Positions 11,193 through 63,757 of a DNA stretch of 64,000 nt are shown here, piece after piece. The stretch comes from Stegostoma tigrinum (taxonomy: Eukaryota), in NCBI RefSeq assembly GCF_030684315.1, contig NC_081356.1:20795197-20859196 (forward strand), given 5' to 3'. The position numbers were made by a program, and so were the translations under genes. Each line of letters begins with the position of its first letter. Position 1 is the first letter of the stretch. The notes beneath the pieces are model-generated. The model did no database searches and had not been told where the DNA came from. It saw nothing but the letters and a program-made list of their open reading frames with translations.

Positions 11193-12132
11193 ATGCCAAC
11201 TGAATGCTATTTATGAGCAATACTTCATTATTACGCTGCAAAGGCCAAAATATCTTTTGCTTGCTTCGTGATGAATGTTAATACGCAAGAGAACACCGCT
11301 AGAGGAATTTTAGTGGGTGGATGAAATGTTGAAGGATGTTTCCTACAAAGGTTAGGGAAGCAGTTGCTTGGATTGGAATGCATGATTTTTTAATTCTGTT
11401 TCAAGCAAAGTCTCTGATCTTGCAACAATCTAAATTGGCCTGGCAATGATACCTCATCTTCATCTTTCTCCTGCTCCAGCAGGTTCTTCTAATCTGAAAA
11501 TTAGTGAAGTGAGCTCCTTAATTGTCTTTCATCTTCATCTTTCCCTGCTGCACGATATTGGTTCAGACATGTCTTATGCCCTTGACCTCTTCAACATTCT
11601 ACTTCTTTGCTTGATACCATCCCATGCATTTTTATAAACTGTTTTGGAGTACTCCTGTATCTTAATGAAGGTTTTATTTTGTTTTCACATATGCCAGCAG
11701 CTATTCTGAAGTGTACATCCCACATCTTCCAGAAACTAGTTTTTACGTTTGTTTCCTGCAATGTAAAGGCTTGAATTGTTCAATGTCCTCAGTATCAATG
11801 CATAATTCTGACTCTCAAGGAATCTAGTAAAGATCTCACCTTTTCTAATTCATTCACTGGATGTGGACGTTGCTGAGTAGGGCAATAGTTATGACTCACC
11901 CTTAACTGCCAAGAATGCAGTTAAGATTAAACTGTATTACTTTGGGTCTGGAGTCATATGTAGGCCAATTCAGGTAAAGACAGCAGATTCCTTCCCTAAA
12001 CTAATGTCAGTGTACCACTTGGTTTGTCCAACAATGGTTTCATGGTCATCATGAGATCCTTGCTTTCAGATTATTGTTGAATTCAAATTCTCTCTGCCAT
12101 GATGGGGTTCAAGCTGAGTCTCCAGAACATTA

Positions 12133-12361
12133 GAAGATAATAAAATGTGAGGCTGGATGAACACAGCAGGCCAAGCAGCATCTCAGGAGCACAAAAGCTG
12201 ACGTTTCGGGCCTAGACCCTTCATCAGAGAACTCTCTGATGAAGGGTCTAGGCCCGAAACGTCAGCTTTTGTGCTCCTGAGATGCTGCTTGGCCTGCTGT
12301 GTTCATCCAGCCTCACATTTTATTACCTTGGAATTCTCCAGCATCTGCAGTTCCCATTATC
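12133..12361 (+). mobile_element. Neptune-like PLE inverted mini-insertion (hairpin)
   Basis: Arms 12134-12230 and 12233-12329 are reverse complements with one mismatch; tail to 12361; TSD tctccagaacatta at 12119-12132 and 12362-12375. Confidence 0.92.
12233..12266 (+). ncRNA. Minimal type I hammerhead ribozyme motif (mirror copy on the minus strand in the left arm)
   Basis: CTGATGA(12236)-a-GGG tctagg CCC-GAAAC-GTC(12261-12263); palindromic acgt stem III as in dimeric PLE hammerheads. Confidence 0.8.
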
Positions 12362-12609
12362 TCTCCAGAACATTACTTGGGTTTCTGGATTAACTAGCCC
12401 AGCAATAATACCTTTGGACCATCACCTCCCCAATGAACACTTTTCTTGCAATTGCATACCACAGACAGGTTAATTGACACATACTTTTCACAGTCTGTAA
12501 GAGCTCCTGGTTGCTGAGGTGATTGATGCATTGTTGGCAACTTATATCCATCGGAACCCAGCCCCTGTAATTCTGCCTGTAGTTATCACAGGGAAAATAC
12601 ATATTATAT

Positions 12610-13115
12610 ATTTGCATTTCTGGAATTGACATCGAAGAAGGGATGTAATTGGAATTGAGAGGGTACAGAGGACACTTATTAGGATATTGCCTTGGTTAGG
12701 ATGTTGTTGTAATGCAAAGAAATGGAATAGAGTGGGCTATTTTCCTTGGAGCTGAGGATATTGAAGGGGGATAGGACTGATTTGTATAAAATTAAGAGGG
12801 GCATAGATAAGGTGGATAGGAAGGAAATTTTCCCTTTGCAGGAGGGATTAATGACTAAGGGACTTAGATATAAAGTAAGAACAAGGAGATTTAGAAGGGA
12901 TGTGAGGAAAGCCTCTTCACCCAGAGTTTGTTGGGAATTTGGAACTCATCTGCTTGTAATCGTTAAAGTATTTAGATGTGCACTTACAATGCAAAGGCAA
13001 ACAAGGCAATGGGCCAACGGCTAGAAAATCAAACAAGAATGGATAGGTGCTTACCTTTGATTGGCACAGGTTCAATGAGATGAAGGACTGTTTCCTGTGC
13101 TGTAGACATTTAAGG
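12610..13115 (+). mobile_element. CR1 LINE 3' fragment
   Basis: ORF 12746-13024 ELRILKGDRTDLYKIKRGIDKVD...; CR1 3' UTR ggactgtttcctgtgctgta. Confidence 0.85.
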
Positions 13116-13132
13116 CTCTGAAATAATAAAAC

Positions 13133-15212: not shown

Positions 15213-15811
15213 TAGTCTCCAACAGCACTGACTTACACTTGTCAGCCCTCAGCCTCCATGCAAGTTGCATTTTCTTGTTCCACTTGTATTGCAAGGTTAA
15301 ACAAGGAAAACTACTAACTTAGCAAACTGCACAAACTGCCAACTGGTGCACAAAACTGCTAAAGGACTGGCTAACATTATTCTTGACCTCAGTCATTCCA
15401 AAGGTAGGAGGTAATTAAAACACTTTTTCATGTTCATGATTACTCTTCAAATGCAAATGTATTATGAGGACACACCCAAAGCAGACCAGGGTAAGGCTTG
15501 ACCACTTGCATCTCTGAAATTCAATATGCTATTTGGAAATAAAAGCTTTGCTTCCTGTCTAGTTAACTCACACCAATCATCCCATCTCCCAGTCTTGCAG
15601 GCTCCATAAGATGCTTCCCTTGAGTTCCTAACACATCCAATATGCATGTTAATCCATTCATTCTTCATACCTACATATTGACTGCATCGTTGGCCCCCAC
15701 CATATCGCCAACCATCATATCTCAATTCAAGTCAGAGATTTGAATCTTCACTTTAATTTTTCAATGAGCTCCAGTCACTCAGAATCATGAACAACTAATT
15801 TTGTTTCAAAG

Positions 15812-16034
15812 GTAACAAGGTGTAGAGCTGGATGAACACAGCAGGCCAAGCAGCATCAGAGGAGCAGGAAAGCTGACATTTCAGGTCTAGACTCTTCTTC
15901 AGAAATTTCTGAAGAAGGGTTCAGACCTGAAATGCCAGCTTTCCTGCTCCTATGATGCTACTTGGCCTGCTGCATTCATCCAGCTCTACACCTTGTTATC
16001 TCAGATTCTCCAGCGTCGTCAGTTCCTATTAACT
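15812..16034 (+). mobile_element. Neptune-like PLE inverted mini-insertion (older subfamily)
   Basis: Arms meet at agaaa|tttct (15905/15906); CTGAAGA core at 15909; TSD ctaattttgtttcaaag / ctacttttgttttaaag. Confidence 0.88.
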
Positions 16035-16199
16035 CTACTTTTGTTTTAAAGCTGTGCTTAAATAATTTCTTTATGTCTTCCATTGTTTAATACAAAGTAT
16101 CAGCTCCTTTACAAACAGTTTCAAGTTAAACACTTACTCCAGATGAGCCTGATGTGTCCTCCAGTTCAAAATCAAAATATCACCAATTCTGGAAATTGT

Positions 16200-18415: not shown

Positions 18416-18486
18416 TGCATTGGCTGGCATACAAATCCAGACCTCTTACTTTGCAGGCAAGAATGCTACCACTGAACCACCAATGC
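18416..18486 (-). pseudogene. tRNA-Gly-derived pseudogene, anticodon GCC changed to GCA
   Basis: Reverse strand GCATTGGTGGTTCAGTGGTAGCATTCTTGCCTGCAAAGTAAGAGGTCTGGATTTGTATGCCAGCCAATGCA, 71 nt, colinear with vertebrate tRNA-Gly-GCC; acceptor stem intact, T-loop/B-box mutated. Confidence 0.85.
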
Positions 18487-22240: not shown

Positions 22241-22260
22241 AAATCAACCTTTTGACCCTG

Positions 22261-22486
22261 AGATAGTGAGAACTGCTGATACTAGAGTCTGAGATAACAC
22301 CGCGCGGAGCTGGATGAACGCAGCAGGCCAGGCAGCATCAGTGGAATAGGAAAGCTGATGTTTCAGATTGGGACACTTCTTCAGAAAAAAGTTTTCTGAA
22401 GAAGGGTCCTGACCTGAAAGGTCAGCTTTGCTGCTCCTCTGATGCTGCCTGGCCTGCTGCGTTCATCCAGCTCAACACTGTGCTAT
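22261..22486 (-). mobile_element. Neptune-like PLE inverted mini-insertion
   Basis: Tail on the left; arms meet at tcagaaaaaagttttctga; TSD cttttgaccctg / cttttgaccttg. Confidence 0.88.
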
Positions 22487-23599
22487 CTTTTGACCTTGTG
22501 TCCTTGCAAGCAACTATCCTACCCGATCCAATGTACTTAAGATGTCATAAATGTGTGAGAAATGGCTTACTAGTTTATATTTGACTTTAGCATTAAATAC
22601 ATTAGATTGAAAGTTTGCCCATAAAATGAAACATTATTTATAAACTAGCATAATGCCTACACAATGTGATAAGATTCAGGTGATTGTCATGTATTCGACT
22701 GTGGTCCAAGCCCTTCAGAATACATTTTGTTCCAAACATTTCAAAACAGTCAAGTGGTATGCAGGGTCCTGGGCACTTAAAGGCCAATGAATAAATGATG
22801 CTCATTGAAGCCTGGAAACCTATTCAAAAGTAACTGTTTCTTTTAGTGCGGTTAAAATGCCTAAGCAAAGAATGTAGCTGGTAAGGCATTGCAAAAATCA
22901 CTATTCATCCAATACATGTATGTAAATCAGATGGCTTGAGGTGTTTGAAGCCATTCTCATCCCTGACATGACATAGATGCAATTGTGCAACATTATCACA
23001 ATAAAGGTAGATTTTTTTTAGAGAAAAAGAAGTCCTTAGCACAATTGCATTGCAAGAGCATAACTGTGCAGAAAATGATAACCCAGATAGATATCCCTGT
23101 CAATAATGACACTTTCACATTAAAGAGATAACCAAAAAGCAGCTTGCCCAGGGATTCTAAAAAAAAGCAAAATACTGAAGCCTTTCCACACCTTTCAACA
23201 AAGGAAATTAGTTTATATTGAAATGGATTTAGAAAATCATCATAGGAAAGCTTTGTGCACCAGTTGGTATGTTCCAAATCTATTCTACCTTTTCATCACT
23301 ATTGAAGCAGTTAACATGTAAAAGCTCAATGCTTTGACACAGAGAACATTGGTTTTCTACACCATTATTCTCAAAGGTAACAGTCACTTGGAAAATGAAA
23401 TGCATTTGAACGTTTGCCTTCTGCTCTTTTCACAAATTATGGTGCAGGGACCAGAATAGAAAATGTTACCATCACAGTGACAATCATCATTTACGTTAGC
23501 CATCATTATTTATGTTCCTGTATTAATAAATACGAAGCATGAGGAGGAAATATTGTATATTATCTAGTTTGAAGATAAGGAATTAGTGCAAAAGCATCT

Positions 23600-29405: not shown

Positions 29406-30287
29406 ACTGGCTGGAGTATTCCAGGGTGACCAAAAACATGTCCTTCCTATATTTCCTTTTCTTCATCTCACCTTTCTCATTTATAAACTGCTCTAAATTC
29501 ATTCAGCTGTCTTTTACAGTCATTCCTCATAAATCACTTTCCCCTACTGTTAAAATCTTTTGAGGAACACTGGCTCAAGCTTCCATGCCTCAAGGAAATA
29601 TAGGCTGATGTTTTACCATTACAATTTGTGGCCTTTTCTGCATCTCTTCTAGACATTTTCGGATCCTGGTTTTTCGATTACTCTTTGGCTAAACTATCAT
29701 ATGTATCTATTGAGCAAAAGATAACTAAATAAGTCACCCTAACATATGTCTTTCATATTGGTATTAAAATTTACAAAATCTATTGCCTCAAAAGCAAAAT
29801 AGTGAAAAGCTGCAGGCTATACCAGCTTATCATTTCTTTTATTAATATTTTGTCGACACAACTATTTTTTTCATCACTAGAGAAGCTGACTGGTCTATCA
29901 TAACTTATGATCGTTATAAGCAGGATCTTTCAGCTCTATTTCATTCAGCACATTTCAGCCTATTTAACAGCTCAGGTGTATAAATATATTTGAGCAAGAT
30001 ATGTGGACTTCAGTTGGATAAAAGAAAACTGATGATTATTCACGTAACACAACACTTCTTTTTAATGATAATAAAGTGTGAAGCTGGATGAACACAGCAG
30101 CCCAAGCAACATCTCAGGAGCACAAAAGCTGACGTTTCGGGCCTAGACCCTTCATCAGAGAGGGGGGATAGGGTGAGGGTGAGGGGGGGAGGTGGACCGA
30201 AGATGGACAGAAAAGAAGGGAGGTGGAGAGGAGAGTATAGGTGGGGAGGTAGGGAGGGGATAGGTCAGTCCAGGGAAGACGGACAGG

Positions 30288-31613
30288 TCAAGGAAGTGGG
30301 ATGAGGTTAGTAGGTAGGAAATGGAGGTGCGGCTTGGGGTGGGAGGAATGTATGGGTGAGAGGAAGAACAGGTTAGGGAGGCAGAGACAGGCTGGGCTGG
30401 TTTTGGGATGCAGTGGGGGGAGGGGAAGAGCTGGGCTGGTTGTGTGGTGCAGTGGGGGAGGGGATGAACTGGGCTGATTTTGGGATGCGGTGGGGCAAGG
30501 GGAAATTTTGAAGCTGGTGAAGTCCACATTGATACCATTGGGCTGCAGGGTTCCAAAGCGGAATATGAGTTGCTGTTCTTGCAACCTTCGGGTGGCATCA
30601 TTGTGGCACTGCAGGAGGCCCAAGAAGGGCATGTCATCTAAGGAATGGGAGGGGGAGTTGAAATGGTTCACGACTGGGAGGTGCAGTTGTTTATTGCGAA
30701 CGGAGTGGAGGTGTCCTGCAAAGCGGTCCCCAAGCCTCTGCTTGGTTTCCCCAATGTAGAGGAAGCCACACCGGGTATTTTGGATACAGTATAGCACATT
30801 GGCAGATGTGCAGGTGAACCTCTGCTTAATATGAAAAGTCATCTTGGGGCCTGGTATAGGGGTGAGGGAGGAGATGTGGAGGCAAGTGTAGCATTTCCTG
30901 CGGTTGCAGCGGAAGGTGCCGGGTGTGGTGGGGTTGGAGGGCAGTGCGGAGCGAACAAGGGAGTCACGGGGAGAGTGGTCTCTCCGGAAGGCAGACAAGG
31001 GTGGGGATGGAAAAATGTCTTGGGTGGTGGGGTCGGATTGTAGATGACGGAAGTGTCGGAGGATGATGCGTTGTATCTGGAGGTTGGTGGGGTGGTGTGT
31101 GAGAACGAGGGGGATCCTCTTTGGGCGGTTGTGGCGGGGGCGGGGTGTGAGGGATGTGTTGCAGGAAATATGGGAGACGCGGTCAAGGGCATTCTCGATC
31201 ACTGTGTGGGGAAAGTTGCGGTCCTTGAAGAACTTGGACATCTGGGATGTGCGGGAGTGGAATGCCTCGTCATGGGAGCAGATGCAGCAGAGGCAGAGGG
31301 ATTGGGAATAAAGATGGAATTTTTGCAGGAGGGTGGGTGGGAGGAGGTGTTTCAAGGTAGCTGTGGGAGTCGGTGTGCTTGAAATGGACATCAGTTACAA
31401 GCTGGTTGCCTGAGATGGAGACTGAGAGGTCCAGGAAGGTGAGGGATGTGCTGGAGATGGCCCAGGTGAACTGAAGGTTGGGGTGGAAGGTGTTGGTAAA
31501 GTGAATGAACTGTTCGAACTCCTCTGGGGAGCAAGAGGCGGCACCGATACAGTCATCAATGTAATGGAGGAAGAGGTGGGGTTTGGGACCTGTGTAGGTG
31601 AGGAAGAGGGACT
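30288..31613 (-). pseudogene. PLE reverse transcriptase C-terminus, Cys linker and GIY-YIG endonuclease (frameshifted)
   Basis: FLHYIDDCIG (RT active site), DVHFKHTDSHSYL, CNRRKCYTC linker (Neptune clade), NVLYCIQ...LYIGETKQRLGDRFAGH; frameshifts near 31310-31350. Confidence 0.92.
30385..30500. repeat. Three ~40-45 bp tandem units inside the PLE 3' region (also 48220-48335 and 50595-50700)
   Basis: Repeated ctgggctggtt(t)tgggatgcagtggggg. Confidence 0.8.
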
Positions 31614-31665
31614 GTCCGCCTCCCCCTCCCTCCCTATTTATTCCAGAACCCTCACCCCATCCCCC

Positions 31666-31699
31666 TCTCTGATGAAGGGTCAAGGCCCGAAACGTCAGC
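31666..31699 (+). ncRNA. Minimal hammerhead ribozyme motif
   Basis: CTGATGA(31669)-aGGGtcaaggCCC-GAAAC-GTC. Confidence 0.78.
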
Positions 31700-32034
31700 T
31701 TTTGTGCTCCTGAGATGCTGCTTGACCTGCTGTGTTCATCCAGCTTCACACTTTATTATCTTGGATTCTCCAGCATCTGCAGTTCCCATTATCACTTCTT
31801 TTTAATGAGTTGCTTCCTTTCTTCAGGCGAAAAATTCAAACTGCAGTTGGAAGAGTTATCGTTGTAATTGATAAATTGGTTTTAATGATGATGACTGACT
31901 TTGAATCTGAAATTATTTATTATTTCAGATTTACCCAGCATGTTGACTCAACATTACACTTCAAAAGATTTATAGAATTGGTTTTCTTAATCTCTTTTGT
32001 CCTTAGACTGTAGCAGCAATCAGTTAAGAGATAG

Positions 32035-35165: not shown

Positions 35166-35494
35166 AGAAAGCCAAACCAATTGGCTACAATTTTTCTCAT
35201 TCATTGTTTATTTATTTTTATTCACTCATGGGAGTTGGAGATGCCAGCTATTGCAACATTTATTGCTCATCCCTAGTTGCTCTTGATAAGGTGGCAGCGA
35301 ACTGCATTCTTGAACCGATGTAGTTCATCTGCTTTAGGTTGATCCAGAATGACCTCAGGGATGGAATTGCAGAAATTCTGACCCAGTGACAGGGAAGGAT
35401 TGGCAATATATTTTTAAGTCAGAATGAGAATCACTTGGAGGGGAACTTGCCCCCTTTGGTCTTCCAGATGGAAGTGGTCACAGGTTTGTGTGGT

Positions 35495-35723
35495 AAGATA
35501 ACAAAGTGTGGAGCTGGATGAACACAACAGGCCAAGCAGCATCTCAGGAGCACAAAAGCTGACATTTCGGGCCTAGACCCTTCATCAGAGAGGGTCTCTG
35601 ATGAAGGGTCTAGGCCCCAAACGTCAGCTTCTGTGCTCCTGAGGTGCTGTTTGGCCTGCTGTGTTCATCCAGCTCCACAAATTGTTATCTTGGATTCTCC
35701 AGCATCTGCAGTTCCCATTATTG
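35495..35723 (+). mobile_element. Neptune-like PLE inverted mini-insertion (hairpin)
   Basis: Arms meet at tcagagagggtctctga; exact TSD caggtttgtgtggt at 35481-35494 and 35724-35737. Confidence 0.92.
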
Positions 35724-36012
35724 CAGGTTTGTGTGGTGCTGTCTAAGGATCTTTGGTGAATTTTTACAGTGTATCTTGTAGATAGTACACATGACTGCTA
35801 CTGAGTGTCGGTGGTGGAAGGAATGAATGCTTGTGGATGTGGTGCTAATCAAGTGGGCTGCTTTGCCCTGAATGTTGTCAGACTTTGAGAGTGCAATTGG
35901 ATCTGCACTCATCCTGGCAAGTATTCCATCACAGTCCAAACTTGAATCTTGTATGATGGATAATATTTGTGGAGTTAGGGAGTGAGTTATTTGTCCATAG
36001 TTTTCCTAGCTT

Positions 36013-36376: not shown

Positions 36377-36846
36377 TTCTGGCCTGCTCTTGTAGGTATT
36401 GTATTTATATAGGAAATCCAGCTGAGTTTCTGGCCAATGGTAACCTGCAGGATGTTGATAGTGGGGGATTTAGTGATGGTAACACCATTGACTGTCAAGG
36501 AGCAGTTGTTTGATTGTCTCTTATTGGAGATGATCATTACCTGGCTTTGTGTGACGTGAATTTTACTTGCCTCCATCAGCCCAAGATTGATATTGTCCAG
36601 ATCTTTTGTTGCATTTGAGCATGGACTGCTTGAATATCAGAGTTGGTGCTGAACACTGTGCAATCATCAGTGAGCATCTCCACTTCTGACATTATGATGA
36701 AGAGAACGTCATTGTTGTAGCAGCTGAAAACTTTTGGGCCTAGGACACTACCCTAAGAAACTGTTACAGAGATGGTCTGGACCTGAGATGAATGACCTCC
36801 AACAACCACAACCACGTTCCCGTGTACCAGGTATGACACACACCAG

Positions 36847-36940
36847 AAGAGTCTAGACCCAAAATGTCAGCTTTTGTGCTCCTAAGATGCTGCTTGGCCT
36901 GCTGTGTTCATCCAGCTTCACACTTTGTTATCTCAGATTT
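36847..36940 (+). mobile_element. Single-arm Neptune-like PLE terminus
   Basis: gaagagtctagacccaaaatgtcagc...gttatctcagatt. Confidence 0.8.
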
Positions 36941-40312: not shown

Positions 40313-40449
40313 ATTTTGTTTCTGCTGTTTGGCTGCGGAATAAAATAAAATTTGCATTGTACGACTGATGTAAGTTTCAGATTGCTAACTGTTTTCGGGT
40401 GCAACGCTCTCTGAATCTGAACATTGATATCGAAGCACCACATTTAACT

Positions 40450-40731
40450 CAGATAATGGGAACTGCAGATGCTGGAGAATCCAAGATAATAAAGTGTGAA
40501 GCTGGATGAACACAGCAGGCCAAGTAGCATCTCAGGAGCACAAAAGCTGACGTTTCGGGCCTAGACCCTTCACAGAGAGGGGGATGGGGTGAGGGTTCTC
40601 TCTCCCTATTTATTCCAGAACCCTCACCCCATCCCCCTCTCTGATGAAGGGTCTAGGCCCGAAATGTCAGCTTTTGTGCTCCTGAGATGCTGCTTGGCCT
40701 GCTGTGTTCATCCAGCTTCACACTTTATTAT
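40450..40731 (-). mobile_element. Neptune-like PLE inverted mini-insertion
   Basis: Tail on left; junction ~40598; TSD caccacatttaact / cactacaattaact (12 of 14). Confidence 0.9.
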
Positions 40732-41863
40732 CACTACAATTAACTACTTGCTTCACTAAATACACAAAGTCCTTCCAGGTTCCGGGGTGGTGGTGGGGGG
40801 GAGGTGGGCAGCAGCAAAACAAATTCTAAATTGAGCACATGCAGAAAATGCCCAGTCTATCAGATTGTGATCTCAATAACAACATGATGTGAATGTGATG
40901 CATAGTGGTTGAAGGGAGTTTTCAGCACTGAGTGGAACCTTGGAAGCAAGAAGAGTGCTGACTATTTAATCCTCCAAAATAAAGCTTAAATCTAGTGAAA
41001 ATTAAGAAGGTTCTATCATATGAAAGCAATACGGATACATTAGATTTATCTGTAATCATTGTTGCTGATGCGTGGTATTCTCAGAAGGGTCCCTTGCTGC
41101 TATTCACGCGATGAGCAGTGGAAAAGGAACATCATTGGAATATCAGTGCTGGACTCTAAATGACCAGAAGAGTATTTTCTCCTATGCACCAGGTTTAATA
41201 TTTAAATTAAAAATCTTTAAACAAAAATGATAAGACTTAATACAGCACTGAAGTAGTAAACTTATTTGAGTTGTACATTCGTAACGTCTCATGGTTTTAG
41301 CTTCTGTCATGATGGTTGAATAAATTTAATCAAAATTCAGTATTTTTCCCTATTTTTTCAAAGATGATTAGTTCGTGAGAAATGCTCTCTCACAAATTTC
41401 ATCAATTTGCCATGTAAAATAATAAAGATCCTTTGAATTGGCTAATTAGAAGTGAAGAGTAAATTTACTTCCAGCAAAGATAAGCCATGCTGATTTGTTT
41501 TTTTAAAATGTCTAACCAAACAGCTTCTGAAAAGGGAAGCTAGCCAAATTGATTCGACTCTATGTAATACATCTTGGGAGCTGAAAAATAGCTGGGAGAA
41601 AGCATTTTTCAGTTGCAGTTGTTCTCATTAGCCATCTTGGTATTGGGAATCATTTGTTCAAGCATTTTCATCCCCATTTTGACCACAAGCCAAAAAGTAT
41701 CAACTTTTTTTAGACTCAAAGAGGGAAAAAAAGCAAAGCAAGGAAAAAGGAGTTTGATTGGCAAGACGGTGGTAAAGGCTTTTTTGAACAAAAAGCTGTT
41801 AATGAGTATGGAGCAGCAACATTTTGGACAATTTCAGCTAGGGCTTTTCTTGAGCAGGTAGTC

Positions 41864-47745: not shown

Positions 47746-48605
47746 TGATTGCTAGACCACTTCGGAGCGCAGTTAAAAGTCAATCACATTTTTGTGGGTC
47801 TGAAGTCATATTTTGACCTGACCAGGTAAGGACAGCAGTTTTCCTTCCCTAAAGGACATTTGTGAACCAGGTATGTTCTTATAGCAAGATAATAAAATGT
47901 GAGGCTGGATGAACACAGCAGGCCAAGCAGCATCTCAGGAGCACAAAAGCTGACGTTTCGGGCCTAGACCCTTCATCAGAGAGGGGGATGGGGAGAGGGA
48001 ACTGGAATAAATAGGGAGAGAGGGGGAGGCGGACCGAAGATGGAGAGTAAAGAAGATAGGTGGAGAGAGTATAGGTGGGGAGGTAGGGAGGGGATAGGTC
48101 AGTCCAGGGAAGACAGGCAGGTCAAGGAGGTGGGATGAGGTTAGTAGGTAGCTGGGGGTGCGGCTTTGGGTGGGAGGAAGGGATGGGTGAGAGGAAGAAC
48201 CGGTTAGGGAGGCAGAGACAGGTTGGACTGGTTTTGGGATGCAGTGGGTGGGGGGGAAAAGCTGGGCTGGTTGTGTGGTGCAGTGGGGGGAGGGGACGAA
48301 CTGGGCTGGTTTAGGGATGCAGTAGGGGAAGGGGAGAACATCCCCCTCTCTGATGAAGGGTCTAGGCCCGAAACGTCAGCTTTTGTGCTCCTGAGATGCT
48401 GCTTGGCCTGCTGTGTTCATCCAGCCTCACATTTTATTATCTTGGAATTCTCCAGCATCTGCAGTTCCCATTATCTCTGATACCATGTTCTTATAGCAGT
48501 AGTTTCATAGTCACCATAAGACTCTTAACTCCAGATCACCAGAACATTACTTCGGTTTCTGGATCACAAGTCCAGCAACATTACTGCTCCGCCTTCATTT
48601 CCCCT
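47745..48605 (-). mobile_element. tRNA-derived SINE, host of the PLE at 47887
   Basis: Family match on both sides of the insertion. Confidence 0.65.
47887..48484 (+). mobile_element. Neptune-like PLE inverted insertion (long antisense arm, short tailed arm)
   Basis: Junction ~48338; exact TSD atgttcttatagca at 47873-47886 and 48485-48498; intact hammerhead motifs in both arms. Confidence 0.93.
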
Positions 48606-50356
48606 TATCCATGTTTTTCATTTGCACTGCATTACAATCTTTCAGCTGTCAATTGATATCAACTTGACTGAAGAGAAATCACATGGCTATCATTTAACAT
48701 TTTAGATCATTATCAACTGGCACCATTGCCAATAATTGGCATACATACAATATTACAGCTCCCAAGCATTTGTAATTAACAACATTTGATTTCTTATCGG
48801 TGCTCCGAAGCTGACTGAATGAGAAACTCGGATAAAACTTGATTAAGTTTCACACATCAGTTTACATCAGCATGACATCAACCTTTTTTTTCATACCAAT
48901 TGTTGTTATGTACTGTGTTGACTATTTAACAGGCAGCGTACAGGCTATTTAATGGAGATACAAGCATATAGACCACCCTTTTATCTCTTCTGGTTCTTCT
49001 GGATAGGTATGAACATTGGACATTATAAAATCGAGCTCTGTTAAGACATCTATTATATTTACTTTCCCTTCAGCCTACCCTCCAAAGGCAACTTTACCTG
49101 GCCAAATGCACTGATAGCCTCCTAGTAGGAAATAAAATAGTTCGGACCTGTCATTGCACACGGTTCTTAATTTTTTTGAGTATAGCACACTGGGCATTAG
49201 CCCCTGCCATTCCGAGAATCAAAGATTTTTAAAAGAGATGTTTATGATTTTTTATAATTGTTTAAAATTGCCAAATTGGCCTCTGTTTTAGATGCACATT
49301 GACAGGAAGAACAAATCAGACCTCTTCTGCCGAAAAAAAATGTTATTTGTTACAGGCAGTTAGACTCACGCTACAGATTAACAATTATGAACCATTGGTG
49401 CTTAACTCTACTAATTACAGCTCAAATCCACTTATTAAGCTGCCTCTTACACACAGACACAGACAAGAGAAAAGTAAGTGTTATGGGTGGAGGGAAAACT
49501 GGGAAAGCATTTCATTGGTCTCTGTTTGAAGGATCTGCTGAGATGGTTCTTACACTGATTAGTCTACCTTTTTTAGATGTTTTCACAGATTTCAAGAGAT
49601 AGAGGGCAGCTGATTCACTTTGAAATAAAATCTTTGGCTGATTAATTAGGAGTCATTTCTTGTATCAGTTGTTGGAGGATAAATAAATCAGTTTTCTTCA
49701 GGTTAAAAGTAGTTTTCATTGCAGCGAACAAAGCGTTCCTAAATTCTGAATTCTTCTCACTGTCTTATTCAAAACTCTAAACTATCCAACATCCTGAAAA
49801 CCAGATAGTTGTTGGTGGGCAGAAAGCCTTTGCCATTAATGTCACCATACACCAATCAGCTTCATGTTGTCAACGAAAGTTGCAATTGTGGAGAAACCTT
49901 TGGCACCAGCTCAACTATAAATTACTCGAACAAGCAGCTTTATAAATTACGCTCACAATCAGGTCAGGTTACTTGCTTTGAAACATACAGCAATCCTCCA
50001 GCAATCCATAGTTTTAAAATAACTGTTTTCCATTTCAGCCTACAATTAAAAATACAGAAAATTAAAAGCCATGATCTATGAAAGTAGAATATTTTAAATC
50101 CCAATAGTGGCCACACCTAGTAATTCTCAATCACCCTTTCACAGGTAACTGTTTGGCATTCTCTCTCCTAATTACTCTCACTCAGGTAGACGCTCCAGCT
50201 TCTTCTGTAAGATGCATCTGAGGCTGCAGCCAAAACCAAAAATGCATCGAGCGCTTAAAGTGCAGACATGAAGTTTAGTGTGAAGACAATAGTGGCTCTT
50301 ACCTGGACTGGCAGTGAATACCAACTAAGTGAAAATCAAACACGTGGGTTAAGGTA

Positions 50357-51068
50357 ATAAAATGTGAGGCTGGATGAACACAGCAGGCCCAGCAGCATCT
50401 CAGGAGCACAAAAGCTGACATTTCAGGCCTAGACCCTTCATCAGAGATGGGGATGGGGTGAGGGTTCTGGAATAAATAGGGAGAGAGGGGGGGGTGGACC
50501 GAGGTTGCAGGAACAGCAACTCATATTCCGCTTGGGAACCCTGCAGCCCAATGGTATCAATGTGGACTTCACCAGTTTCAAAATCTCCCCTTCCCCCACC
50601 GCATCCCAAAACCAGTCCAGTTCGTCCCCTCCCCCCACTGCACCACACAACCAGCCCAGCTCTTCCCCTCCACCCACTGCATCCCAAAACCAGTCCAACC
50701 TGTCTCTGCCTCCCTAACCGGTTCTTCCTCTCACCCATCCCTTCCTCCCACCCCAAGCTGCACCTCCATCTCCTACCTACTAACCTCATCCCACCTCCTT
50801 GACCTGTCTGTCTTCCCTGGACTGACCTATCCCCTCCCTACCTCCCCACCTATACTCTCTCCACCTATCTTCTTTTCTCTCCATCTTCGGTCCGCCTCCC
50901 CCTCTCTCCCTATTTATTCCAGAACCCTCACCCCATCCCCCTCTCTGATGAAGGGTCTAGCCCCAAAACGTCAGCTTTTGTGCTCCTGAGATGCTGCTGG
51001 GTCTGCTGTGTTCATCCAGCCTCACATTTTATTATCTTGGATTCTCCAGCATCTGCAGTTCCCATTAT
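50357..51068 (+). mobile_element. Neptune-like PLE inverted insertion (short antisense arm, long tailed arm)
   Basis: Junction ~50500; sense arm encodes LQEQQLIFRLGTLQPNGINVDF (endonuclease end); TSD cacgtgggttaaggta / cacttgggttaaggta. Confidence 0.93.
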
Positions 51069-51174
51069 CACTTGGGTTAAGGTAGGCTGCTTTGGTAGGT
51101 ATTCATCCAAATGTATTTTAAATATTGTTAATTGAATTCAGGAAGAGTTGGCAAACTAGATACACAATTGACTT

Positions 51175-53038: not shown

Positions 53039-53042
<4 letters not shown>

Positions 53043-53077
<35 letters not shown>
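53043..53077. repeat. (TTA)n microsatellite
   Basis: Direct inspection. Confidence 0.95.
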
Positions 53078-53080
<3 letters not shown>

Positions 53081-53088
53081 TTAAGCTC

Positions 53089-53911
53089 ATCAATACAGTG
53101 TGGAGCTAGAGGAACACAACAGGCCAGGTAGCATCAGAGGAGTAGGACAGTCAACATTTCGGGATGGGACCCTTCATCATGGGGAGGGCAAAGGGAGCTG
53201 GGAAATAAATAGAGGGAGGGTGGGTGGGGCTGGGGAAGGTAGGTGGGATGGAAAGGGGTGGATGCAGGTAGGGTGGTGGGATTGGTCAGTGGGAAGGGTG
53301 GGGTGGATAGTTGGGAAAGAAGATGGACAGGTTGTGTCAGGTCAAGTTGGTGGGGATGAGGGGCTGGGTTGGGCATGGGATGCGGCCCCAAACAAACTTT
53401 ACATATCCGACAGGGATTCACCTGTATACCCTCCAACCTGGTCTACTGTATCTCTTGTTCCTGATTTGGCCTCCTCTAGATCAGTGAGACCAAGTGCAGA
53501 TTCGGTGACCAATTCGCAGAGCATCTGCGCTCTTTACACTATAATCAACAACACCTTCTGGTCGCCAACCATTTTAACTCCCCCGACCATCCCCTTGATG
53601 ATGTGTCCATCTTCCAGTGCCACAATGTTGCCACACACAAACAGGAGCAACAACACTGCATATTCTGCCTCAGGAGCCTGTGGCCCAATGCCTAAAAGTA
53701 GAATTTACGAGTTTCAAAATCTCTCCACCGCCAGCCTCACCTGCCCTCCCTCTATTCATTCCCAGCTCCCTTCCCCCTCCCCAGACCTGATGAAGGGCCC
53801 TGAGCTTAAACATCGAATTTCTTGCTCCTCTGATGCCACATGATCTGCTGAGTTTCTCCAGCTCCACACTGTATTAACTCTGATTCCTGAATCAACAGTT
53901 CTTGCTATCTC
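53089..53911 (+). mobile_element. Older Neptune-like PLE inverted insertion
   Basis: Antisense arm to ~53382; sense arm GPKQTLHIRQGFTC..NLVYCISCS...ISETKCRFGD (GIY-YIG); degenerate hammerhead at 53787; imperfect TSD ttattaatttaagct / ttactaatttcaact. Confidence 0.85.
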
Positions 53912-54489
53912 CTCTTACTAATTTCAACTACACTGTTCAATCCTAAAAATTTCAACAGAACTCTTTGTTCTCCTTTTATTTCCAACCAACAGTTTACTAA
54001 TTCTCCAGAGGATTTAGATGTTTCATTCACCTCTCCTGGGTTGAAACTGAGGTGTGCCACAGCTTTCAGTCATTCATCTGAATTCACAGGGTTCCTGCTA
54101 TTCTATGAGGAGTGATATTTCTTGAAATGATTCTGCAATTGGCCAGCCAAATCTCATTAAGTATCTCACCATTGTAGATTCCTCATTTGATTCATGGGCC
54201 TCTTACATTTTTGCTTCCTGATTTCACATCAGAAGAAGTCTTTGGTTCTGATAACTTTCTCCTCCTGACTTACACTTCGTGGCAGATTACCTGTCATTCT
54301 CTTTCTGTTTCCAAGCTGGTCTACCTCCATTCTTAAATTGACTGTTTCAAAGCTGCTGCCAGTCTGAGAAATCACGCAAATTAATCTAACCAAAGGAAAC
54401 TGTTCTGCAAACTATGTCAATTGCAACTTGGCAAAACTGTAATGTCCCAAATTGACATTTAACCAAAGTACATGTGTCACTAAACCTGT

Positions 54490-57213: not shown

Positions 57214-58890
57214 TGTCCGCATACAGTGAAATAACTCCACAGAGGCTGGTATCTCATCACCATGTTGACCTTTATTTTCACATGAAGAATCTGTAATACT
57301 GATGCAACTCCCTCAGAACCAGCTACCTCAGAGTGTAGCAGGAGCTGCAGATGCTGGAGAATCTGAGGTAACAAGGTGTAGAGCTGGATGAACACTGCAG
57401 GCCAAGCAGCATCAGGGGAGCAGGAAGGCCTATTTTCTAGGCCCGAAACATCAGCCTGCTTGATCCTCTGATGCTGCTTGGCCTGCTGTGTTCATCCAGC
57501 TCTATACCTTGTTACCTCAGAGTCAGCAGGATTGCTGATGCTCCTGCTTAAATCTGTCAGGCAGGGCTCTGTGATTGGACAGATTATCTGCCCCAGTCAG
57601 GGAACACATATTCTACAACATCTACCTGGCTGACCTCATTATAATCATAACACCCCTCCCCCCTGAGTCTGAAGACTTGGGCTGGTTCTTTTTTTTGTAG
57701 CTAGTTCCTGGATTATGTTAGCATGGGATCATGTTCCCCCAACTTTGCCCCTGATATGGATGGCGTGTAACGCACAGTAGATTGCCTCTTGTGACTAGAA
57801 CATCTTGTAAGAAATTCATCCATGTGTCATTCTCAAATTCCAAGGTATCTTCGACACATGGCAGAGAGAGACAACCCATGGATGCCGGAGCAGTAAGAAA
57901 GGCTGTCAAGGAGCTGGGAATGTTTTACTCCCTCACCATTTGCATGTTTGCAGCTTTTATATGGTCCACATATTTGTTCAGGACCATCGCACCTACTGAA
58001 ACTTTTTAGGTCACTAGACCTGACCTCATGTGAATCATGCTTCTTACCCATGCAAGGCCATTCCCATGGTTCCTACAACAAACTTCATTCCCTGAAGTAA
58101 ATTGCTCCTGTTGCTTATCGGAGTCTTATGTCCAGCATTGGTGTTCCTAATGCTGTTTCACCCTCACCTTGCAGCCCACCCCCCACCCAGGTCCAGGAAG
58201 ATCAGATTTAATGTGGTGCCCAGTCTTTCACCCTCATTAGCAACTCTGCTGGAGTTATCACTGTGGTTGTATGTGGGGTGATCCTTTAAACAGGTGGGAG
58301 CCAGGACAGTTTGATATCTAGAGAAGCTGTAGGCTGTTTCATTAAGCCTGCCTTCCAAGACTGCCTGCATAGTCCATATGCAACCGAGTTCAAGGTTTAC
58401 CTGACCATTCCCACGAATGTAGGGAGCTGCTGGCAGTAATTTTTGTCATTGTTGGCACTCTGGGAACTGTCCCACAAATGTAGCTATGGCTGCATCCAGT
58501 TCTATCTACAAGACACAACCGTTCCCCAACATCTTTAGTTTGGAAACCCCTGGAAGACCTGAGTGGAGTTCAGCCAGTATCTATTAAAAATCGAGGCTCC
58601 ATAATTGCTTTCACTCGCCAGGAGTTTCCCAAGCTCAGTCAGACAGGTGAGGGTGTCCACTTCCATCAGAATTTCCTGCAAATTATACGTGGCAACTGCC
58701 AAATTTTCCACTGATAAAGCCAATGTTACTGCCTGTTTGAAGTCCAGTTGGACTCCACCTATAAAGTGCTTAGGCATGTTTACTTCATTAAACAAACGTT
58801 CTCTCAGAATCTCATTAAGGATCTTCTGGTCAATCTGTCTTTTGAGAATCAATGAGATAAGAGCACCCTTGTTGTCTTTGGAGTCTGGGA
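57214..58890 (-). mobile_element. Gypsy LTR retrotransposon remnant (gag and integrase pieces, PPT, 3' LTR 57214-57652)
   Basis: Integrase ECQQ*QKLLPAAPLHSWEWSGKP*TRLHMDYAG and TPHTTTVITPAELLM; gag-like LNEILRERL...LDFKQAVTLALS; PPT agggggagggg before the TGT LTR start. Confidence 0.88.
57335..57512 (-). mobile_element. Neptune-like PLE inverted mini-insertion inside the Gypsy LTR
   Basis: Tail on left; arms join inside the hammerhead; TSD tacctcagagt at 57324-57334 and 57513-57523. Confidence 0.88.
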
Positions 58891-60590: not shown

Positions 60591-61444
60591 GGAAGTTGAG
60601 GATCGGATAAAGTTGAAAGAAAAAAACCATGCAGTGCAGCAAAGATTTGTGCTAAGTCAGAGGACTGGGAAAAGTTTAAAACACACAAAAGATGGCCTAG
60701 ATGTAAATAAGAGGAAGAAAATGAACTTTCAGAGTAAACTAAATGTAATACAAAAATACAAGTAAGAGCTTTTTAAAATAAGTATTAAAAAATGCCAAGA
60801 CGAGTGTAGACCCTTTAGTGAATGAGGCTGGGGAAATAACAATAGAGAGCCAGGAAATGGTAGGGTAGTTGAAAACATGAATAGCATTTCAAAAATACAA
60901 AATAATCAAGGCCAAAATGAGGTGCAAATAAACACAATAGCTATCACGAGAGAAAAAGTACAAGCAAAACTTAATAGGCTAAAGGCTGATACATCTCCCG
61001 GATATAATGTGCTGCATTCTACGAGATAAATAAAACGTAGCCACAGAGATAGTGGATACATTGGAGGTAATCTTCCAGGAATCCATTGATTCTGGAAAAG
61101 TCCTATAGGATTGATATCTACTAATGTAAATCTTTATTCAAGAAAGGGTGTGAATAAAAACAAATCGGCCAGTTTGCTTCTTTACCAGAGTGGTAATTAA
61201 TGAGCAAGGAAGCCATACACTGCAGGAGGATGTCAGCAGGGCAGAGCAAAGGCAAACGGAATTGATTGCAGAAAAGTGTGAGGTAATGTATTTGCTGAAA
61301 GCCAACATAGCCAAGGATTACACAATGAATTGTAGGATCCTGGAAAGTATTGAAGATCAAAAGACCTTGGTGGGCCTATCCACAGATGCCGAAAGGTATC
61401 AGAGTAGGAAGATAAGGTAGTTAAGAAGGCATATTGGATGCTTG

Positions 61445-62936
61445 GAAGAAAACAGAAGTTTCCAGAAAAGCTCAGCAGGTCTGACAGCATCTGTGCAGAA
61501 AAAAATCTCAGAGAGCTCAATATGAATAAAATTTCAATTCTTTTTGCTGCTTTCTCAGTTCCAAAGAATAAAGAACAAAGGACACGGGAACAGGCCCTTC
61601 GGCCCTCTAAGCCTGCGCCAATCCAGAACCTCAATCAAAAACCTGTTGCGTATTTTCCAAGGATCTGTATCCCTCTGCTCCCTGCCCATTCATGTATCTG
61701 TCTAGATACATTTTAAATGACACTATCGTGCCCCCCTCTAAAACTTCTGCTGGCACCCACCACCCTCTGCAGAAAGAACTTTTCATGCATTTCTCCCTCA
61801 AACCTTTCCCCTCTCGTCTTGAAATCATGACTCCTAGTAAATGAGTCCCCCCGCTCTGGAAAAAGCTTCTTGCTATCCACTCTGTCTAGACCTCTCATGA
61901 TTTTGTAGGCCTCAATCAGGTTCCCCCTCAACCTCCGTCTTTCCAATGTAAATAGTCCTAATCTGTTCAATCTGTCTTCATAGCTAGTGCCCTCCATACC
62001 AGGCAACATCCTGGTGAACCTCCTCTGCACTGTCTCCAAAGCATCCACATCCTTTTGGCAATGTGGTGACCAGAACTGCACACAATATTCTAAATGTGGT
62101 TGAACCAAAGTCCTATACAACTGTAACATGACCTGTCAGCTCTTGTACTCAATACCCCGTCCGATGAATGAAAGCATGCCGTATGCCTTCTTGACCACTC
62201 TATCAACCTGAGTTGCCACTTTCAGGGTGCAATGAACCTGAACATCCAGATCTCTCTGTGCATCAATTTTCCCCATTTACCACATAGTTTGCTCTTGAAT
62301 TGGATCTTCCAAAATGCATCACCTCGCAGTTGCCTGGATTGAACTCCATCTGCCATTTCTCCGCCCAACTTTCCAACCTATCTGCAGCATTCTCTGACAG
62401 TCCCCCTCATTATCCGCTACTCCACCAGTCTTAGTGTCATCCCTTGAGGTAAAAGATTGGTGAAAGCACTTGTTGCAAGGCACTTATGTTTAGAGTTTTA
62501 AGATGTTCACCGTGACAGAGAACATCACAAAAAATGGCCTAAACTCTCCCATATCTCAACCCACTACACCACACACCAAGCCTTGTTATCACATAGCCTG
62601 CCATTACATACTCCCTTTGTTACTCACTAACAGTCCCAATAACAGCTATGCACCTTCCTGGCTAGGTCGTTACCAACTGCTTTGTCTATCCAACTGCTCT
62701 CCTCTCTCTTTGGGCTCTATTCTTTATTCTATTGTTTGCTCCCTATCCCATCCCCTTCCCTATTTTCTACACGTAAACTGATGTTTTCCCAGCTGCAAAG
62801 AGTTCCGAGGAAGGGTCACCAGACCCAAAACGTTAACTCTGATTTTTCTTTCCAGATGCTGCCAGACTTGTTGAACTTTTCCAGCAACTTCTGTCTTTGT
62901 TCCTGATTTACAACATCCGCAGTTCTTTCAGTTTTA
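61445..62936 (+). mobile_element. Old Neptune-like PLE inverted insertion (arms 61445-61510 and 62540-62936) with filler DNA
   Basis: Left arm is the reverse complement of 62840-62900; degenerate hammerhead ccgaggaagggtcaccagacccaaaacgtt at ~62805; weak TSD atattggatgctt / atgtaggatacct. Confidence 0.7.
61563..62441 (-). mobile_element. Younger CR1 LINE 3' part
   Basis: ORF 61713-62129 LQLYRTLVQPHLEYCVQFWSPHCQKDV...; (aaagaac)n tail. Confidence 0.93.
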
Positions 62937-63757
62937 TGTAGGATACCTTTGTTAGCACAGGAATAAATTTCAAGAACACGGGGGTTGTAATGGCACTGTT
63001 TAAAATGCTATTCCAGCTGCACCTAGAGTATTTTATGCAGTTCTGGTCACCACATTGTAGGAAGAACGTGATCAGACTAGGAAAGATAAAGAGAAAGCTA
63101 ATCACGATGCTGCCTGAAGTGGAGGGTCTGACAAATGAGGAAAGATGAGATAGCAGGGGTTTGTTTTCTTTGGAACAATGTTGAACCTGATAAAGGTATA
63201 TAGATTATGAGAACCATAGATGGTGTAGATAGGAAGGCACATCTTCCATAAATAGAAGGGCCAATATTAAGGTTGCATCGTTTTAAAGTAAGACGTAAAA
63301 GGCTAAGAGGGGATTTTGAGATTATTTTCATTCAGAGGTAGTGGGATTAAGGAACTCACTGCCTGAAAATGTGGCTGAGTCAGAAAATTTCATAAAATTC
63401 AAGCAGCGTTTAATACTCATTTGGCTTCATTTACGTTGCCTTAGCATCAGAGGATATAGCCCAAAGCTGGAAATTGTTACCTAGTGATAGGCAAGAAAGG
63501 GTCAGGCCTAAGGCTTTGGTGAATAAGTCACCAGATATATGGAATAAGGCCTTGTCCTACCAAGCAACGTCAAGTTGCTTTTTTACAAGGCAGCATTGAA
63601 GTACATTATGATGAAGAGGTAAATTTCTTATTACCATGTTTAAATCTGGCTTCCAGGATGTTGTTGCAAAACATTTTGAGAGCTTGGTATTGTTAGCTAC
63701 TGCACAGATTTCCTAGATGGGAAATAAGTAAAATTGAGAGGTTACTATCCAGTTGGT

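Follow-up and report, generated by a model that had tools for sequence, protein, structure and literature searches.

The question raised by this locus is how a retrotransposon comes to be inserted repeatedly as two arms whose 3' ends face outwards, one with a tail and one without, inside a TSD. The initial annotation of the window (the whole stretch of 64,000 nucleotides of Stegostoma tigrinum DNA that was analysed) had described eleven loci with one layout. Nine of these are TSD-bounded, two-armed and of one family, and carry the confirmed layout of two outward-facing arms, one tailed and one tailless, within a TSD; however, the locus at 53089 has a weak TSD, and that at 61445 belongs to a second family, with no TSD found. 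TSDs were called with a score cut-off of 8.5, which was reached by 2 of 300 mismatched flank pairs. The features of the window are as follows.

12119..12375, young two-armed insertion; TSD 12119-12132 / 12362-12375, 14 nt, exact
12200..12227, reverse strand, minimal hammerhead motif of the tailless arm, by sequence and min-HHR pattern match
12236..12263, forward strand, minimal hammerhead motif of the tailed arm, with core, bulged base, 4-bp stem II and palindromic stem III
12328..12364, forward strand, tail, made up of the opening bases of the following tandem unit and lying between end sites A (12327) and B
15795..16051, two-armed insertion of an old subfamily; TSD 17 nt with 2 mismatches; tail on the forward strand
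22249..22495, old two-armed insertion; TSD 9 nt, exact; tail on the reverse strand
30053..31808, two-armed insertion; TSD 16 nt, exact
30288..31752, reverse strand, disrupted 3' portion of the RT-EN ORF, split over two frames, with RT YIDD and thumb, Cx4CxxC linker and GIY-YIG
35481..35737, two-armed insertion; TSD 14 nt, exact; tail on the forward strand
36846..36960, forward strand, solo arm (arm proper 36846-36939) with a decayed tail
40436..40745, two-armed insertion; 14-nt repeat with 2 mismatches; tail on the reverse strand
47873..48498, young two-armed insertion; TSD 14 nt, exact; tailed end at +41
50341..51084, two-armed insertion; TSD 16 nt with 1 mismatch
50911..50917, forward strand, TATTTAT, a TATA-like box and putative promoter, 34 nt upstream of the hammerhead core
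53073..53924, old two-armed copy, ~72% identity; weak TSD
57324..57523, old two-armed insertion; TSD 11 nt, exact, overlapping element sequence; tail on the reverse strand
61444..62940, outward arms of a second PLE-like family (61444-61503 and 62843-62903) with a LINE 3' fragment between them

At 12119..12375 the tailless arm lies on the reverse strand and the tailed arm on the forward strand, with 5' ends at -94/-95 relative to site A, and the insertion at 30053..31808 pairs a long tailless arm on the reverse strand (to -1561) with a short tailed arm on the forward strand (to -146). Either arm can be the longer one, as had been noted from the start: it is the tailless arm at 47873..48498 (-449 versus -102) and the tailed arm at 50341..51084 (-531 versus -157). 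The homology 'accga' reported at ~50498 is imperfect, the exact overlap being 1 nt, or CCGA when an A is left out. The repeat at 40436-40745 scores 7, under the cut-off, in a layout like that of the other loci, and at 53089 both arms are there, with a best TSD of 10 nt with 1 mismatch that adjoins a (TTA)n run. No TSD was found at the solo arm at 36846..36960, which is absent from the initial annotation; a further arm fragment at 9669-9700 was also overlooked there. The arms at 61444..62940 are of a different family and gave no BLAST match to the main arm, and the TSD search there found none (best score 4.5); the 3' ends of this second family are likewise bimodal, ~35 nt apart. Blind samples covering 1.23 Mb contained 38-50 two-armed insertions per Mb. 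The high density claimed for the window is thus seen by count (8-10 per 64 kb, 3-4 times the average), whereas by bases the window is ordinary (7.9% versus 7.5%).

Judged from their sequence, the insertions in the window are truncated copies of a very abundant Neptune-type Penelope-like retrotransposon (PLE). The broken ORF pieces at 30288..31752 gave no Pfam match at 1e-3; genomic relatives that are 95% identical to this stretch have frames of 855-894 aa which match RVT_1 and GIY-YIG. The 855-aa (L093) and 894-aa (L091) frames do so with E values of 9e-5 and 5e-5 for RVT_1 and 0.0035 for GIY-YIG, all under the Pfam curated cut-offs. The hallmark of EN+ PLEs is present, namely a single ORF with a PLE-type RT (DKG motif) along with a GIY-YIG endonuclease at the C-terminal end, and the L093 frame has DKG at 218, YIDD at 459 and VY...YIG at 716-730. 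The CCHH motif is also present, with CxxC within the VY...YIG core and histidines at 743 and 759; in EN+ PLEs the two cysteines of this motif sit between GIY and YIG (PMC8557442, available text). A Cx4CxxC linker lies between RT and EN at 678-686 of the same frame. The CX2-5CxxC zinc-finger-like RT-EN linker is described in the available text of PMC8557442 as found in Neptune and Nematis and absent from Penelope/Poseidon, so the latter clade was rejected and the Neptune-type identity first assigned is supported. The Neptune placement would follow from this linker together with the vertebrate clades reported, which are Neptune and Poseidon.

Within a 16-nt TSD, L093 consists of an inverted arm, a partial copy, a 3658-nt unit and a tail. 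The partial tandem forms pLTRs and the tail is the start of the next unit; in many copies the tail continues into the leader, and in full-length copies into the 5' leader and the ORF start, which lies at +73, past the tail. Short tandem non-autonomous units with one hammerhead apiece were also found in this family.

The 3' ends of the arms fall into two discrete classes. The tailless end lies at -4 to +4 in 51 of 59 insertions and the tailed end at +35 to +37 in 40 of 59 (full span +32 to +51), and the two fixed RNA sites ~35 nt apart that had been proposed are therefore borne out as sites, although as windows several bases wide. One arm tailed and the other tailless, as first described, is the state of 63 of 65 unselected TSD-bounded pairs, none of which has two tails, and of 41 of 42 pairs in the selected sets. 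The inverted, 5'-truncated copy with a one-sided 30-40-bp tail, a trait of EN+ PLEs, is present in the same 63/65 pairs. L077, one of the two tailless pairs, resembles a tail fused by internal deletion; L180 is a TSD-bounded two-tailed copy, and the contiguous blind pairs without a TSD call include one two-tailed and two tailless. One-armed TSD-bounded copies are common (of 38 blind arms tested, 6 were tailed and 6 tailless copies of this kind), so the two-armed layout, at first taken as the rule, is a common form but one outcome among several.

The ~14-nt staggered cut proposed earlier agrees with the TSD lengths, which have their mode at 14 nt. The TSD lies within a dyad-symmetric AAAn(c)aRnn site, whose mirror-symmetric half-sites stand outside it. 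Across 86 insertions, A is found at target positions -23/-22/-21 in 45/50/51, a purine at -17 in 67, a pyrimidine at +2 in 68 and T at +6/+7/+8 in 56/48/38. When a matrix was trained on one half, the other half scored positive only at spacings of 14-15 (+0.68 and +0.67 bits; background -1.68), and dyad symmetry was r = 0.80 at 14, 0.74 at 15 and at most 0.40 elsewhere. Both half-sites are enriched in the unselected, selected, young and old subsets, in a motif that is loose (best columns 57-62% A). The overlap of TSD edges with element sequence, noted at several of the loci, is real and above chance: target homology of at least 2 nt occurs at 32 of 59 ends on each side versus 16-17% by chance (~3x), and at 22 of 44 when only exact TSDs are taken; among unselected insertions with exact TSDs, just 9 of 23 tailless ends have it. 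Empty paralogous sites carry a single TSD copy, not both, in 11 of 13 cases, and all six paralogous host-repeat sites for 12119..12375 carry one copy. Contigs of four public sequencing runs aligned to 46500-58500 were dominated by the repeat, and among the pieces listed none spanned a site of insertion.

These insertions were probably made by twin target-primed reverse transcription (TPRT), in which a likely dimeric RT-EN would make symmetric nicks ~14 nt apart and copy one RNA twice. Two endonuclease domains would nick a loosely symmetric site to give two 3' overhangs; synthesis from one 3'-OH would begin at site B, where the tail ends near +36, and synthesis from the second at site A, near 0, both on the same pLTR copy of one RNA and each aided by 1-4 nt of pairing. 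If the 5' pLTR copy were used, both cDNAs would run off the RNA 5' end at about -95, producing the common ~230-bp hairpins, and use of the 3' pLTR copy would leave both arms long. Host end-joining would link the cDNA ends via short homology, blunt joints or filler, and loss of one cDNA would result in a one-armed copy. All of these steps are deduced from finished insertions. The joining of cDNAs by microhomology, as originally suggested, applies to 11 of 27 inner junctions, whereas nine have inserted bases and five are blunt. None of the three outcomes that the initial annotation had named as fatal to its proposal was observed.

The lengths of the two arms are coupled, with 43 short-short, 15 long-long and 5 mixed among 63 pairs (Fisher p 1e-10), so that both arms are of the same class in 58. 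Among long-long pairs, 8 of 34 stop within 30 nt of each other versus 1.3 on shuffling; long-long arm lengths overall are without rank correlation (Spearman -0.19, n 15). The youngest arm pairs differ at 0/1499, 2/1500 and 3/1338 sites. For only 12 of 19 long pairs is an arm's nearest neighbour its own partner, so the data do not distinguish a single RNA molecule from a single source family, or from conversion of one arm by the other at a later time. The two arms of a pair carry matching subfamily markers in 64 of 84 cases versus 31 on shuffling, for which successive activity waves suffice, so this was not counted as support for a shared RNA.

A rather unlikely alternative is that twin priming is the work of an asymmetric complex, or proceeds in two steps one after the other, on two separate RNAs or with one enzyme used again, the first nick always using one site and the second the other. 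It accounts equally for the one-tail pairing, the TSD and the finding that either arm can be longer, and the count of 12/19 is in its favour. The two ends are moreover not equivalent, as TSD length varies mainly on the tailed side and the 16-mers have a purine at -1 in 17 of 18. Two independent RNAs, however, do not predict the same arm class in 58/63 pairs or the 8/34 long pairs with neighbouring stops. Sequential use of one RNA by one enzyme still fits the arm-length coupling.

Under symmetric twin priming on one RNA, the 5' ends of the arms may record the end of the template. Of 235 such ends, 67 fall in -98 to -91 (8.4 per nt) versus 0.31 per nt just upstream, and this short-arm cliff at about -95 sits ~30 nt past a conserved TATTTAT. 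This box, or one much like it, is found 32-37 nt upstream of the core of the hammerhead in 175 of 187 long arms and would be the promoter. Among sequencing runs listed as containing the sequence there was no RNA run, which has no bearing on expression. The cluster at -92 persists with 141 long natural copies as references, by which a single-reference artefact was rejected. Among 29 internal pLTR copies running into the body, 7 start at -92 to -98 and 13 at -163 to -221, and because of the latter -95 is not the sole template start. L037 and L002 had hinted that full-length copies begin at a fixed point within the tail, an idea that was rejected as upstream ends vary. An intact minimal hammerhead motif is present in 50 of 175 arms spanning the region; the Rfam search gave no hammerhead match at the gathering score. 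The predicted hammerhead cut (-63) has 13 5' ends in 5 nt versus 8.1 expected (p 0.07), and the AGCT there is a joining-prone palindrome.

It is unlikely that twin priming holds and the -95 cliff instead marks an RT stall just after the hammerhead fold. The cliff is directly 5' of the hammerhead core and internal pLTR copies often start further upstream, as such a stall would have it, but stalling arm by arm would give many mixed short-long pairs, which were seen in 5/63, and the TATA-like box stands at the usual distance in the 175/187 long arms across subfamilies. A G-quadruplex stall at -95 was set aside by reasoning, the sense RNA being C-rich there and G-runs in the cDNA being expected only further upstream. 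The target dyad motif, the arm-length coupling and the -95 cliff are all absent from the initial annotation.

A single TPRT followed by fold-back, in which the cDNA or an antisense RNA self-primes (PMC3846280, available text) and the EN resolves the far end at site A (PMC8557442, available text), is distinctly unlikely, published proposals notwithstanding. Near-perfect hairpins are frequent among the short copies, some with a palindrome at their centre (AGCT at -63/-63 repeatedly), and the arms are nearly identical with coupled lengths. Fold-back of a cDNA nevertheless needs the second arm to lie inside the first, and in 9 of 46 pairs the tailless arm outreaches the tailed one by over 30 nt; L074 and L140 pair a tailless arm with a tail-only arm of 10-18 nt, that of L074 being an 18-nt arm opposite a tailless arm of 1.2 kb. 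Because of these longer tailless arms and tail-only arms, neither arm contains the other, and pure cDNA fold-back as the sole route was rejected by such non-nested pairs. One-armed tailless copies with a TSD show that site A serves as a start independently, and target homology at the tailless end equals that of the tailed end.

That the ~230-bp hairpins are a pre-formed non-autonomous MITE- or SINE-like element moving as a unit is very improbable: short hairpins are the majority (43/63), their junctions cluster near -95 and one inner junction was seen twice in 27, but a continuous size series with the same ends and TSD extends up to full-length copies, public contigs hold many different hairpin joints, and the shared internal junction expected of such an element is rejected for this sample by 26 distinct junctions of 27.

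Twin priming, as preferred here, has a counterpart in L1. In L1 twin priming the internal position at which the second cDNA is primed varies, and each of the two cDNAs represents a different part of the RNA. The present arms differ in that they overlap in sequence over 40-2500 nt and start in two windows ~35 nt apart, so that the same stretch is copied and the L1-type form was rejected; the two-armed form is, in addition, a major outcome. The likeness lies in the use of the target's second 3'-OH as primer for another cDNA, which results in an inverted and truncated insertion flanked by a TSD. Going by the sequences, integration works like twin priming, yet not in the L1 form (for L1 twin priming, see PMC2837659).

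In the available text of PMC11167929, the Poseidon element PAc of Anolis carolinensis, a predicted dimer (Frangieh et al. 2024), cut and extended both strands in vitro from two RT starts that bracket the tail. The core of the original proposal, that both 3'-OH ends prime at two RNA sites, is therefore supported but not new. PAc resembles the present family in its RT with C-terminal GIY-YIG, its hammerhead upstream of the starts and its preferred start, a window of ~8 nt. The Neptune-type family differs in having the Cx4CxxC linker, which Poseidon is without, and an ORF that starts at +73 after the tail, whereas that of PAc starts in hammerhead stem II. The target of the family, a dyad whose halves are spaced by 14 nt, contrasts with the ATT of PAc, and the family shows short target homology at the starts, which for PAc are reported as non-homologous. 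The strict pairing of one A with one B also contrasts with PAc, for which the same text gives start sites alike on both strands and reports no strand difference.

The layout was published earlier as complex insertions of endonuclease-bearing PLEs (PMC3846280, PMC8557442, available passages), and the architecture itself is known already. Pen2a_Av and Pen2 of Adineta vaga share the head-to-head arms, a one-sided tail of 31-40 bp, a short TSD that is single at the empty allele, partial tandems that form pLTRs and a hammerhead in the pLTR; the TSD is ~14 nt here versus 8-10 in A. vaga. In those passages the tail is described as optional or as frequently one-sided, the proposals made are self-priming from an antisense template or resolution by the EN, and no pairing count, target motif or arm-length coupling was found in them. 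The extra base before stem II, the G-C closing pair and the palindromic stem III are as in metazoan PLE minimal hammerheads (PMC4209133, available text), and the short tandem non-autonomous units with one hammerhead each recall PLE-derived non-LTR retrozymes (bioRxiv 10.64898/2026.07.22.740005, available text). Unlike in either of these, the two motifs of the two-armed insertions here are on opposite strands, which implies one active-sense copy per transcript.

No published statement of the pairing, target, homology and arm-length rules was found, although Arkhipova 2006 and Evgen'ev and Arkhipova 2005 may state some of them; the text supplements of PMC11167929 gave no match, and its supplementary figures may bear on target motif and strand pairing. 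The origin of PLE inverted ends and of the one-sided tail is named as an open question in the available text of PMC8557442, and steps after first-strand synthesis were left unvalidated by the in vitro study (PMC11167929, available text).

It is quite possible, and tentatively put forward here, that PLEs integrate by a symmetric reaction which a dimer drives and which is unlike the TPRT of LINEs. A pair of GIY-YIG domains would read the palindrome AAAn(c)aRnn-N14-nnYt(g)nTTT and make nicks spaced by 14 nt, two RTs would start at sites ~35 nt apart on a single RNA, the tail being the spacing of the RTs, and both would run to the RNA end, leaving ~100,000 hairpins that record the transcript 5' end. 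The family supplies numbers that can be tested at the bench: a nick spacing of 14, symmetric half-sites, one A and one B start per event, pairing over 1-4 nt and a template end common to both arms. It also accounts for roughly 120,000-160,000 insertions of hairpin shape in this genome (38-50 per Mb scaled up to 3.2 Gb), which repeat annotation could misfile as MITEs.

The main-family insertions are a real feature of the window, and represent a known class with a known architecture: the two-armed layout of Penelope-like elements (PLEs), with its tail and target site duplication (TSD), is already described in the accessible parts of PMC3846280 and PMC8557442. Repeat searches and BLAST within the window recovered outward-facing inverted arms at all ten of the main-family positions named in the initial annotation (10/10), and two further pieces, a solo arm at 36846 and a fragment at 9669. 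That annotation had given TSDs to eleven loci; eight passed the TSD test, with duplications of 9-17 nt, but not all eleven did (an equal score was reached by 2/300 mismatched flank pairs). Locus 40450 has a 14-nt repeat carrying two mismatches, and 53089 a weak 10-nt repeat adjoining a microsatellite. The locus at 61445 is not one more TSD-bounded insertion of this family as had been proposed: it is a member of a second family with a LINE 3' fragment between its arms, and no TSD could be detected in the flanks tested. Other features of the window are as follows.

18416-18486, minus strand: tRNA-like sequence (44.3 bits), probably the head of a tRNA-derived SINE
24995-26960: separate element, likely a non-autonomous DNA transposon, in which ~470-bp inverted arms (87% complementary) flank a 1-kb middle
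47136-47422, minus strand: degenerate 18S rRNA fragment (65.5 bits), which could be a pseudogene or a repeat derived from rRNA
53034-53089: (TTA)n microsatellite directly adjoining the old 53089 copy at its tailless end; either the target site or the end of the element may have given rise to it
61502-61560 and 63758-63816; 62440-62510 and 63816-63886: local duplications around 61445, suggesting rearrangement that postdates the insertion
62790-62945: second PLE-like family (86 matches in the unselected samples), with 3' ends likewise bimodal, ~35 nt apart

The unselected set comprised the window, the adjoining 200 kb and 123 blind 10-kb stretches of large contigs. The first 83 blind stretches were used for the TSD test, the single-arm check (the repeat of which reused the same set) and the nested-arm comparison (46 pairs), and all 123 for later analyses. 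The selected set consisted of the 29 best matches to a tailed arm (the window's own locus being dropped), 20 loci with long ORFs and 26 with a 5' leader, L154 (a duplicate of locus L093) and three overlapping loci having been dropped from the last group. The blind set held 245 arms, or 199 per Mb, with two-armed insertions at 38-50 per Mb; by count they are 3-4 times as frequent in the window as on average, but by bases the window is ordinary (7.9% vs 7.5%). Across the 3.2-Gb genome, a search with an 89-aa reverse transcriptase piece of the window produced 68,969 first-look candidates, whose open frames reached 894 aa.

Bounded by a 16-nt TSD, locus L093 combines an inverted arm and a partial copy with a unit of 3658 nt and the tail. 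Its frame matches RVT_1 and GIY-YIG, both under Pfam's curated cut-offs, and has DKG and YIDD motifs, a Cx4CxxC linker and a CxxC within the GIY-YIG core; such a linker is characteristic of Neptune and Nematis but lacking in Poseidon, according to the accessible part of PMC8557442. A 39-nt minisatellite of three copies directly follows the endonuclease coding region (L093 5960-6090; window 50586-50714) and is partly read into the ORF at its C-terminus. Positions are given relative to site A, the final nucleotide at the tailless 3' end (position 0); site B, the tail end, is at about +36. The tail is the beginning of the next tandem unit and continues into the leader, with the ORF starting at +73. 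A minimal hammerhead occupies about -91 to -64; of the 175 arms spanning this region, 50 retain it intact, and it was not detected by Rfam. Hammerheads of this kind were defined in PMC4209133, the accessible part of which reports them in fish Neptune elements. Loci L006, L158, L171 and L172 (also L016 and L180) carry head-to-tail tandems of short units with internal deletions, with periods of ~301, 415, 422 and 358 nt. Each unit joins the end of the pLTR (the repeat arising from partial tandems) to the leader's first 140-320 nt and has one hammerhead, and the upstream ends are grouped between -163 and -221. These units resemble non-LTR retrozymes.

The arms fall into two 3' end groups, near 0 and near +36, and the proposal of one tail per insertion was borne out in 63/65 unselected TSD-bounded pairs; none was two-tailed and 2/65 were tailless, one of which looks like a tail fused by deletion. 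Among 15 more unselected contiguous pairs without a TSD call, 12 were one-tailed, two tailless and one two-tailed, and the selected sets gave 41/42 one-tailed pairs and one two-tailed copy. The two end sites had been described as fixed; two classes exist, but each is a window several bases wide. In young insertions (n=59, two rows without an anchor being dropped) 40 had the tailed end at +35 to +37 (range +32 to +51), and in 51 the tailless end was at -4 to +4. TSD-bounded pairs account for 33/74 young blind arms, and the two-armed copy is not the sole product. A TSD was found for 17 of 38 unpaired blind arms tested (null 0/150): six were one-armed tailed, six one-armed tailless, three had a second arm of just 10-18 nt and two were complex.

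Arm 5' ends are concentrated at -98 to -91 (67/235, or 8.4 per nt), beyond which their density drops to 0.31 per nt. This cliff is preceded by about 30 nt by a TATA-like TATTTAT, which 175/187 long arms carry 32-37 nt upstream of the hammerhead core; in contrast, the accessible part of PMC2377424 describes a TATA-less internal promoter for Drosophila Penelope. An excess of 5' ends at the predicted hammerhead cut was non-significant (p 0.07). Internal pLTR copies (n=29) start at -92 to -98 in seven cases and at -163 to -221 in 13, most of these 13 belonging to short tandem units. Neither arm went past the cliff in 43 pairs and both did in 15, with five mixed (Fisher p 1e-10). Long pairs showed no overall rank correlation in length, and 8/34 had arms ending at most 30 nt apart, against 1.3 on shuffling. 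The youngest pairs were 99.8-100% identical, and an arm's own partner was its nearest relative in just 12/19 cases.

At the outer junctions, element and TSD overlapped by at least 2 nt at 32/59 ends on each side, where simulation gave 16-17%; the tailed-side figure is somewhat inflated, as the best of six natural continuations was used. With exact TSDs only, the figure was 22/44 on each side (unselected subset: tailless 9/23, tailed 12/23). The inner junctions, which had been expected to differ between loci, were of 26 distinct forms among 27 young pairs. Joining by microhomology, as initially proposed, fits 11 of these (2-4 nt; null 16%) but not the remaining 16, of which two had 1 nt of homology, five were blunt and nine had inserted bases. 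The inner junctions follow no strict microhomology rule; such a mixture is what host end-joining should give.

The TSD was 14 nt in 27/70 young pairs and 13-17 nt in 61/70, varying chiefly on the tailed side. Thirteen of 107 insertions lie in host repeats with paralogues in the sample, and the empty paralogous sites held a single TSD copy in 11/13 cases (6/6 for locus 12133), as had been anticipated. Alignment of 86 sites on the tailless edge gave AAA at -23 to -21 and a purine at -17 in one half-site; the other has a pyrimidine at +2 followed by TTT at +6 to +8, the two mirroring each other about a 14-nt core. A matrix trained on one half scored the other positively only at spacings of 14-15, and the symmetry correlation peaked at 0.80 for 14. 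The motif is loose; by a simple score picked after the alignment had been seen, both halves were enriched whether the subset was unselected or selected, young or old. Young copies are nested in main-family copies at L024 (1404-1629), L021, L104 and L106; A-rich words resembling the half-site occur in the 3' UTR and might draw such insertions in.

Two equivalent nicks are suggested by the symmetry of the target, and one template region by the coupled arm lengths. The simplest account, and in our judgement a reasonably probable one, is that a dimer would nick the target strands 14 nt apart, one cDNA would begin at A and the other at B on a single RNA, and short hairpins would result from run-off at its 5' end. 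For PAc, a Poseidon element studied in vitro, the accessible part of PMC11167929 reports that both strands are cut and extended, that two starts bracket the tail and that a dimer is predicted; there, however, start sites did not differ between strands and no homology was seen at the start. An asymmetric or sequential version of two-end priming could also be accommodated by the genomic data. Fold-back of one cDNA needs nested arms, and fails for the pairs in which the tailless arm is more than 30 nt longer (9/46), and also at L074, where a 1.2-kb tailless arm is paired with an 18-nt tail-only arm; in these non-nested pairs both ends must have been primed on sense RNA. Free choice of start site, which predicts one tail in half of pairs, is ruled out by the 63/65 count.

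Searches of mostly non-subscription literature, including the accessible parts of PMC12910113 and bioRxiv 10.64898/2026.07.22.740005, revealed neither a count of one-tail pairing nor a palindromic PLE target nor any coupling of arm lengths. The abundance of this family provides sharp, testable rules for the mechanism of PLE insertion.
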